Position numbers and translations under genes: made by a program. A stretch of DNA of 6,958 nt from a virus (Duplodnaviria > Heunggongvirae > Uroviricota > Caudoviricetes): the IMG/VR virus record IMGVR_UViG_2554235127_000007, one strand, 5' to 3'. Shown here piece by piece: positions 387 to 416 of the stretch (its first letter is position 1; each line of letters starts with the position of its first letter). Below the pieces are notes generated by a model, which was not told the DNA's origin, ran no database searches, and was given only the letters and a program-made list of their open reading frames with translations.

Positions 387-416
387 TATAACAGTGTTAT
401 ACAGTGGTATACTGTA
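387..416. promoter_or_regulatory. Three tandem 10-bp operator-like repeats (TATAACAGTG, TTATACAGTG, GTATACTGTA) overlapping an extended -10-like element TGGTATACT (405-413)
   Basis: Read directly: three back-to-back 10-mers at 387-396, 397-406 and 407-416, with ACAGT/ACTGT inverted arms and a GTATAC palindrome. TGnTATACT fits an extended -10 promoter about 22 nt upstream of the ATG at 435. RHH repressors typically bind short tandem or inverted repeats overlapping promoters (established knowledge); that this is their site is inference. Confidence 0.4.
405..413 (+). promoter_or_regulatory. Candidate extended -10 promoter element (TGGTATACT) for the RHH gene
   Basis: The TGn-TATACT arrangement read in the sequence matches the extended -10 consensus TGnTATAAT at 5 of 6 hexamer positions. 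It is embedded in the tandem repeats about 22 nt upstream of ATG 435. No convincing -35 was found, which is tolerated for extended -10 promoters (established knowledge). Activity is inference. Confidence 0.3.

Follow-up and report, generated by a model that had tools for sequence, protein, structure and literature searches.

The window analysed here is a stretch of 6,958 nucleotides from a virus of the class Caudoviricetes (IMG/VR virus record IMGVR_UViG_2554235127_000007), and all positions given below without a locus number refer to it. Near its left end, a divergent PerC-family gene (1..282, minus strand) and a gene encoding a 147-aa regulator (447..890, plus strand) flank a 164-bp intergenic region, which contains two copies of an iteron-like repeat, a 17-bp perfect palindrome (386..402) and an extended -10 element (405..413). 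Further to the right lie two small plus-strand genes and a block of minus-strand homologues of P22 ejection-protein genes. An earlier sequence-only reading described positions 387-416 as tandem 10-bp operator-like repeats that overlap a candidate promoter and serve the autoregulation of an Arc/Mnt-type repressor encoded directly downstream. The comparison with related loci presented here indicates that the repeats are a real, evolutionarily conserved predicted binding site on the regulator's promoter, where the regulator itself would quite probably bind as two ribbon-helix-helix (RHH) dimers and repress its own gene.

The site upstream of the regulator gene

Direct reading of the sequence confirms the three consecutive 10-mers, TATAACAGTG (387-396), TTATACAGTG (397-406) and GTATACTGTA (407-416), with ACAGT at 391-395 and 401-405 and ACTGT at 411-415. 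A repeat search of the window picked out ACAGTGTTAT/ACAGTGGTAT as a 10-bp direct repeat at the same place, together with two inverted repeats that are perfect, i.e., GTATAACA/TGTTATAC at 386-393/395-402 and ATACAGT/ACTGTAT at 399-405/411-417. The repeats themselves are thus real, but their best register begins at 386 (or 383) rather than at 387. When the 164-bp intergenic region was subjected to 5000 dinucleotide shuffles, 10 of them (0.2%) scored at least 20 for triple-10-mer similarity; with the whole window, that score was reached in 14 of 200 shuffles (7%). A perfect inverted repeat with 8-nt arms arose in 66 of 5000 shuffles of the intergenic region (1.3%). Judged from the single sequence, the pattern is only moderately unusual, and that it goes beyond chance follows from its being kept across genera.

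Other explanations of the motif were considered and rejected. The half-site-like TACTGTAT at 410-417 does not form part of a LexA box on direct reading, as CTGT-N8 is followed by TACT and not by ACAG, and ACAG...CTGT has the wrong orientation. The palindrome is also a poor candidate for a terminator or hairpin: its loop would comprise 1-3 nt, it lies upstream of the predicted transcription start, and no terminator-like site was found in 200-1000. Likewise, RNA structure in the leader is ruled out as an explanation, the fold of the leader being in no way unusual (z = 0.08).

Conservation of the predicted operator and promoter

The DNA upstream of the regulator gene was compared among 48 genome loci and 63 IMG/VR loci (individual loci are cited below by L numbers), all enterobacterial. 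The footprint counts rest on 43 genome loci, which represent more than 15 genera, and on approx. 50 IMG/VR loci. High information content is confined to two 7-mers, whose starts are 10 bp apart, and to the motif TGnTAnAaT directly after them, and the upstream flank, the 3-bp spacer and most of the leader vary. In the window, the two 7-mers are the sub-sites (386-392 and 396-402, centres 10 bp apart) of the 17-bp perfect palindrome GTATAAC-AGT-GTTATAC. Within the 21 unique sequences of this type (class 1, see below), both sub-sites are near-invariant, and spacer and flanks are variable. The ACAGT/ACTGT arms to which the sequence-only reading drew attention are present, but the conserved elements are GTATAAC and GTTATAC, which share the frame GT-N3-AC, and the AGT of ACAGT is the variable spacer.

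The position of the site is also fixed. The distance from the first 7-bp unit to the ATG is 57-63 bp across the compared loci. Each of 74 loci has exactly one copy of the class-1 pattern, and 21 loci have the class-2 pattern once per gene copy, in both cases approx. 60 bp upstream of the gene. The pattern is found once in the window and as one perfect copy in the 31-kb locus L051, which comprises a complete island and flanking chromosomal genes. Further copies, which would define a regulon, were found neither in the window nor in L051 nor in any compared locus. The single copy indicates a putative regulon of one promoter, and one operator per locus is the apparent signature of a self-contained autoregulatory cassette. 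In the decayed gene copies of L045, L090 (internal stop) and L111, the operator is wholly or half gone. Taken together, the repeats behave as an operator for the protein encoded directly downstream, as the sequence-only reading had supposed. A search of the literature for the operator sequence yielded nothing relevant.

The conserved TGnTAnAaT motif, which the site abuts and overlaps, corresponds in the window to TG-G-TATACT (TGGTATACT, 405..413, plus strand), with TG at 405-406 and the hexamer at 408-413. It has the features of a sigma-70 extended -10 element, i.e., a TATAAT-like hexamer that is preceded, one base away, by TG and is suitably spaced from the gene, and its distance from the operator is constant in both operator classes. 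Position and conservation thus point to promoter function for 405-413, and the overlap with a candidate extended -10, claimed from the window alone, has held up. No -35 element is recognisable for this promoter. Transcription would start at 420 (plus strand), as judged from the position of the -10 hexamer 7 nt before it, which gives a predicted leader of 27 nt.

Two operator classes and their co-variation with the regulator

The operators fall into two classes that differ in the sequence and the orientation of their sub-sites and have the GT-N3-AC frame in common. Class 1 is the inverted pair GTATAAC-N3-GTTATAC, found in the window and in Klebsiella, Raoultella, Pluralibacter, Serratia fonticola, Buttiauxella izardii, Photorhabdus, Xenorhabdus, Morganella, Proteus and Providencia. 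Class 2 is the direct pair GTCTTAC-N3-GTCTTAC, found in Pantoea, Erwinia, Tatumella, Rosenbergiella, Mixta, Cedecea, Chimaeribacter, Symbiopectobacterium and Buttiauxella noackiae; it occupies the same position as class 1 and is followed by the same kind of -10. In addition, L008 has three tandem GTCTTAC sub-sites rather than two (2931-2957 of that locus), and L011 (Pantoea coffeiphila, 2942-4700) carries two tandem copies of the whole cassette, including iterons, operator and gene.

The class of the operator is matched by the sequence of the predicted DNA-reading beta-strand of the regulator, which reads S-[N/T]-L-[V/I]-A-F-R in class 1 and S-[L/I]-S-V-T-F-R in class 2, with no exception among intact loci. 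Only 4 of approx. 147 alignment columns separate the classes, namely 5 (N/T vs. L/I), 6 (L vs. S), 8 (A vs. T) and 16, and the first three of these fall within the strand. Positions 6, 8 and 10 are those that we take to be the groove-facing, base-contacting residues, by analogy with Arc Q9, N11 and R13 in Arc/Mnt alignments. A tree of residues 11-130 leaves the two classes unseparated, so that operator and beta-strand travel together independently of the rest of the protein. A possible third specificity class (L090, beta-strand NLKEFR) was dismissed: the gene is a pseudogene with an internal stop, and its upstream region has been replaced.

The regulator protein

The open reading frame list suggested a start at 435 and hence a protein of 151 aa, but the true start is the ATG at 447, giving 147 aa: this is the start in the PGAP annotation of an identical E. 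coli copy, and all 18 of 18 aligned homologues begin at the matching M-S-K-S. The gene is present in 361 of 5426 complete E. coli genomes, and homologues at 59-78% identity are spread across the Enterobacterales. In the source records, they are named "hypothetical" or "prophage protein", in one case "Arc-like DNA binding domain protein"; a "PP-loop superfamily ATP-utilizing enzyme" and the "integrase" assigned to truncated members are evidently spurious labels.

The protein appears to consist of an N-terminal RHH domain (approx. residues 4-42), a linker helix and a C-terminal helix-turn-helix (HTH)-like domain (residues 76-147). An AlphaFold2 (AF2) model shows an extended segment at 1-12 and helices at 13-25 and 30-42 with pLDDT values of 70-85, although DSSP assigns no strand in the monomer model. 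Direct reading places the turn between the two RHH helices at G27-G28-D29-K30-T31-S32, and the predicted layout is that of an RHH domain (beta-strand, helix A, tight turn of the type G-x-S/T/N and helix B in approx. 45 residues). Comparison by hhalign gave an in-register alignment of residues 7-46 to Mnt 8-47 (P = 6e-4) and one of residues 1-29 to Arc 4-32 (P = 7e-4). RHH_1 is the Pfam family most often matched by the N-termini of homologues (5 of 26, weakly, with a best E value of 0.003), and neither the regulator nor its homologues reach the curated thresholds of RHH_1 (PF01402) or the Arc-MetJ clan. The weak structural matches include the RHH proteins VapB and Reg576, with VapB chains ranking at the top; a Foldseek search with the full model was uninformative, and profile searches of solved structures with the N-terminal or full-length profile returned only spurious ribosomal-protein matches. 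The regulator has no NCBIfam match and no sequence match in the PDB. Each of these lines is weak, and they agree in suggesting an N-terminal RHH domain. The description of the protein as Arc/Mnt-type therefore stands as regards the likeness of its N-terminus, but not as regards membership of a family, for which no match exceeds a threshold.

Predicted mode of regulation and alternative explanations

It is reasonable to assume that the N-terminal RHH domain forms dimers, each of which would insert a two-stranded beta-ribbon into the major groove at one 7-bp sub-site, a view to which the co-variation of operator class with positions 5, 6 and 8 of the strand lends indirect support. Two dimers, spaced by 10 bp, would then bind the helix from the same side, in a manner similar to the dimer-of-dimers of Arc and Mnt. 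The operator would cover approx. -34 to -18 of a promoter that lacks a -35 and depends on its extended -10, and the bound protein would block RNA polymerase by covering the -35/spacer region beside the TG element. Such negative autoregulation would keep the steady-state level of the protein, and probably also that of the products of the cargo genes downstream, low; where the -10 resembles a third sub-site, as in the E. coli/Klebsiella lineage, it may add to the repression. That two RHH dimers occupy 386-402 on their own promoter and repress the regulator gene is considered quite probable. As for its parts, it is highly probable that the 147-aa protein is what binds 386-402, and the regulation is likely to be negative in sign. 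The autoregulation envisaged by the sequence-only reading fits the layout, i.e., a conserved site on the regulator's own promoter; the binding, its sign and the oligomeric state are what we infer.

Several points weigh against this interpretation. The sequence evidence for the RHH fold is weak: the regulator has no Pfam match at E <= 0.1, the hhalign probabilities for Mnt and Arc are just 26-28%, and all Foldseek matches have E > 5. The operator and the beta-strand codons are only approx. 60-80 bp apart, and their association could partly reflect a single recombination block. On the side of the promoter, the string of the extended -10 is by itself not uncommon (the window contains 2 matches, with 1.1 expected), a scan of 200-1000 for consensus -35/-10 promoters found no pair, and the Shine-Dalgarno sequence of the leader is weak in this window. 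Binding, promoter and start site are, moreover, all inferred.

A different view of the operator itself arises from the third 10-mer, which the sequence-only reading counted among the repeats. Its core, GGTATAC (406..412), coincides with the -10, keeps exactly to the 10-bp phase and shares 6 of 7 positions with GTTATAC, and it might thus be a true third site, in which case three dimers would coat -34 to -8 and cover the -10. Some Klebsiella-type loci (L072, L073, L080 and L081) indeed have a perfect GTTATAC there, the E. coli/Klebsiella lineage keeps the non-consensus C of TATACT, which betters the match to the sub-site, and L008 demonstrates that three tandem sub-sites are possible in class 2. 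However, the extra site of L008 lies upstream and not over the -10. Position 2 of the third unit, an invariant T in both true sub-sites, varies between G, A, T and C in close relatives, as expected of the free "n" in TGn-TATAAT. The resemblance is also lineage-specific: it is seen in E. coli-, Klebsiella- and Serratia-type loci, and nothing similar to a sub-site is present at this place in the Providencia/Morganella loci (TATAAT) or in any class-2 locus (TAAAAT). Because position 2 varies and the resemblance is lost in Providencia-type and class-2 loci, the third 10-mer is best regarded as primarily the -10 element and at best as a weak, lineage-specific additional site, which leaves a three-site operator as a tentative and rather unlikely alternative. 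The second inverted repeat, ATACAGT-GGTAT-ACTGTAT (399..417), is centred on the -10 and is of uncertain significance. Klebsiella-type loci and Serratia fonticola L005 have it intact, and it is disrupted in every Providencia-type locus as well as in L015 and L084.

The remaining alternatives accept the two-unit site and concern what it does or what binds it. The bound protein could replace the missing -35 and recruit RNA polymerase, as Mnt, when bound to Omnt of phage P22, stimulates Pmnt; the promoter lacks a -35, and the site lies where sigma region 4 would bind. Nonetheless, extended -10 promoters need no -35, and the site, centred at approx. -26 and reaching -18 beside the TG, occupies a typical repressor place and not one of the known activator positions (-41.5 or -61.5). 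CopG, Arc and the RHH antitoxins are autorepressors, and positive autoregulation is accordingly improbable here. It is very improbable that the palindrome is bound by another factor, whether the protein's own C-terminal HTH-like domain or a host regulator: the columns that discriminate the classes are 5, 6, 8 and 16, with none in the C-terminal part, the site accompanies the gene through more than 15 genera and changes with the beta-strand, and a 7-bp unit at a 10-bp repeat suits RHH dimers better than HTH dimers. The sequence-only reading also suggested that the operator controls the divergent PerC-like gene, as Omnt controls Pant in the bidirectional switch of P22 immI. The gene order is indeed P22-like (a gp16 homologue, leftward genes and a divergent regulator), and the PerC-family gene adjoins the regulator gene in the E. 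coli islands examined. However, it does so in E. coli loci only; in the loci of 47 other species, no PerC gene is found upstream, and the upstream neighbour varies. The operator and the PerC start codon are separated by 104 bp in the window and by approx. 211 bp in undeleted islands, with an iteron-like/AT-rich element in between, and the likeliest PerC -10 (TATAAT in L051, AATAAT at 291-296 here) is more than 90 bp from the operator. No conserved minus-strand promoter or sequence was found around the operator in the compared loci, there are no overlapping divergent promoters, and equivalents of ant, arc and sar are absent. Neither control of the PerC-family gene nor the analogy with Omnt/Pant is therefore borne out, and a switch of this kind is regarded as quite unlikely. 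Repression of the regulator gene by its own product from the two-unit operator is the explanation that we prefer.

The PerC-family gene and the iteron-like cluster

The PerC-family gene (Pfam PerC, E = 1.7e-30) is a neighbour outside the conserved module. Its product falls just under the threshold of the NCBIfam family ANR (AraC negative regulator; E = 1.2e-7, 31.4 bits vs. a cutoff of 32). Between this gene and the operator, the window contains two TGAACCAACA repeats (303-312 and 324-333, i.e., 303..333, plus strand, 21 bp apart), which are the remnant of a larger iteron-like cluster. The complete cluster comprises three copies of GTTGGTTCA in 9-bp phase, an AT-rich spacer of approx. 45 bp and three copies of TGAACCAACA on the other strand in 21-bp phase. 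It is present in L051 (approx. 12319-12441) and also, for example, in L005, L006, L011, L016, L023 and L029, and its sequence is identical in E. coli, Klebsiella, Serratia, Pantoea, Erwinia, Rosenbergiella and Cedecea. A deletion of approx. 107 bp relative to L051 leaves two copies in the window, and the Morganellaceae loci bear different repeats in place of the cluster. At the deletion junction (283-300), the TATAAT that lies on the minus strand of L051 just upstream of the PerC ribosome-binding site becomes AATAAT in the window, and PerC expression may differ between the island variants.

The cluster looks like a replication origin or another site of multi-protein assembly. Binding of the GAACCAAC iterons by the C-terminal HTH domain of the regulator was considered and found no support: the Morganellaceae loci have no such iterons within 3 kb, yet they retain the domain. 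A broader version, in which the regulator is a two-headed DNA binder with a swappable RHH head and a highly conserved HTH-like head that also acts on the iteron/AT-rich element, is speculative and has a small chance of being right. If true, such a protein could couple the replication, partition or induction of undescribed enterobacterial phage-satellite-like islands with P22-type ejection proteins, and the RHH/operator classes would represent immunity or incompatibility groups between co-resident islands.

The host island and its cargo genes

In complete genomes, the element is an island of approx. 18 kb at tRNA-Thr next to proA (L051 12001-29979). It carries genes for an integrase, AntA/B, Ash and a TOPRIM-DUF927 primase, and it has no capsid, tail or tailspike genes. 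The minus strand of the window encodes homologues of P22 gp14, gp7, gp20 and gp16 (2122-6780), and P22-like phages match this ejection-gene part only. The element is thus a satellite-like island that happens to carry its own P22-like ejection-protein genes and not a P22-like prophage. L001, from another strain, has a truncated ejection module linked to a DUF5906 primase. A literature search for satellites carrying ejection proteins yielded nothing relevant.

Behind the regulator gene lie two predicted cargo genes on the plus strand. The first (970..1191, from the open reading frame list) encodes a 73-aa protein with a C-terminal membrane helix and is probably co-transcribed with the regulator gene, the stretch 200-1000 showing no terminator-like site; the second (1619..2059 from the PGAP start, the open reading frame extending to 1373) encodes a 146-aa protein with a signal-peptide-like N-terminus. 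The genes in this place differ in nearly every genus, and neither protein is conserved downstream of the regulator elsewhere. The downstream proteins are often small, with signal-peptide or membrane-helix N-termini (L002-L049, equivalents of 970-2059), which suggests a cargo ("moron") slot driven by the autoregulated promoter. A toxin-antitoxin or superinfection-exclusion pair formed by the regulator and the 73-aa membrane protein was rejected, as the downstream genes are not conserved and there is no similarity to P22 SieA or orf59a.

At the far end of the window, upstream of the gp14 homologue, a 53-aa open reading frame (MAISVKPVLISEKQMEAIKKIQEE..., 6797-6958, minus strand) has no Pfam or PHROG match at E <= 0.1. 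Its homologues lie near the regulator gene in L008, L017, L034, L035 and L038, and its pattern is reminiscent of a small DNA-binding protein.

Significance and comparison with known systems

Autorepression by an RHH protein through a two-unit operator at the promoter of its own gene is of an ordinary kind, with textbook cases in Arc, Mnt, CopG, omega and the RHH antitoxins. What is new is a widespread, unannotated family that would combine an RHH domain with an HTH-like domain, as well as a natural pair of classes that differ in both the sequence and the orientation of the sub-sites. The operator provides the first functional handle on a protein that is labelled "hypothetical" almost everywhere. 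Besides a defined operator, the analysis supplies a defined putative promoter and a testable specificity code, in which a beta-strand with N-L-x-A is proposed to read GTATAAC/GTTATAC and one with L-S-x-T to read GTCTTAC. Two classes at one promoter position constitute a clean system for studying how RHH specificity changes and how far the orientation of sub-sites is tolerated. Furthermore, a tempting mis-annotation is corrected: a P22 immI switch is not what this locus represents, and nothing indicates that the adjacent PerC-family regulator, which is of virulence type, is under its control.

One close likeness is to the Mnt and Arc repressors of P22. The regulator shares with them a predicted N-terminal beta-strand followed by two helices, an F-R-x-P-x-E motif and an in-register alignment; its operator, like Omnt and Oarc, measures 17 bp, consists of two sub-sites approximately one helical turn apart and overlaps the promoter; and its gene, like mnt, adjoins a gp16-type ejection gene and is transcribed towards it. 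There are also differences. No significant sequence membership links the regulator with Mnt (blastp E = 0.03), and its C-terminus is an HTH-like domain of 70 residues, in contrast to the coiled-coil tetramerisation helix of Mnt. The immI region of P22 has overlapping divergent promoters, Pant and Pmnt, that share operators, whereas here there is a single promoter, and only the plus-strand extended -10 is conserved. In P22, the region includes ant with arc and sar and lies between gene 16 and the tailspike gene of the phage; here, the divergent gene is of the PerC family, without similarity to Ant or Arc, and the element is an island without a tailspike gene.

CopG of plasmid pMV158 and the antitoxins RelB and VapB, which are RHH autorepressors, resemble the regulator in that a small RHH domain, here a predicted one, is encoded directly behind a symmetric or pseudosymmetric operator lying across the promoter of the gene itself. 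Among Pfam families, the homologues match RHH_1 best, and VapB chains head the weak structural matches, with all matches below the family threshold. Unlike the RHH antitoxins, the regulator has no toxin partner, the genes downstream of it not being conserved, and its additional HTH-like domain lies outside the CopG and antitoxin families. With respect to the operator, the omega repressor of pSM19035 offers a further parallel. Omega reportedly recognises 7-bp heptads in direct or inverted orientation, and here, too, one RHH dimer probably recognises a unit of 7 bp, and inverted (class 1) as well as direct (class 2) arrangements occur at one promoter position. However, the heptads of omega are contiguous (7-bp phase) and form arrays at several promoters, whereas the units described here are in 10-bp phase, two to a site (three in L008), with one site per element.
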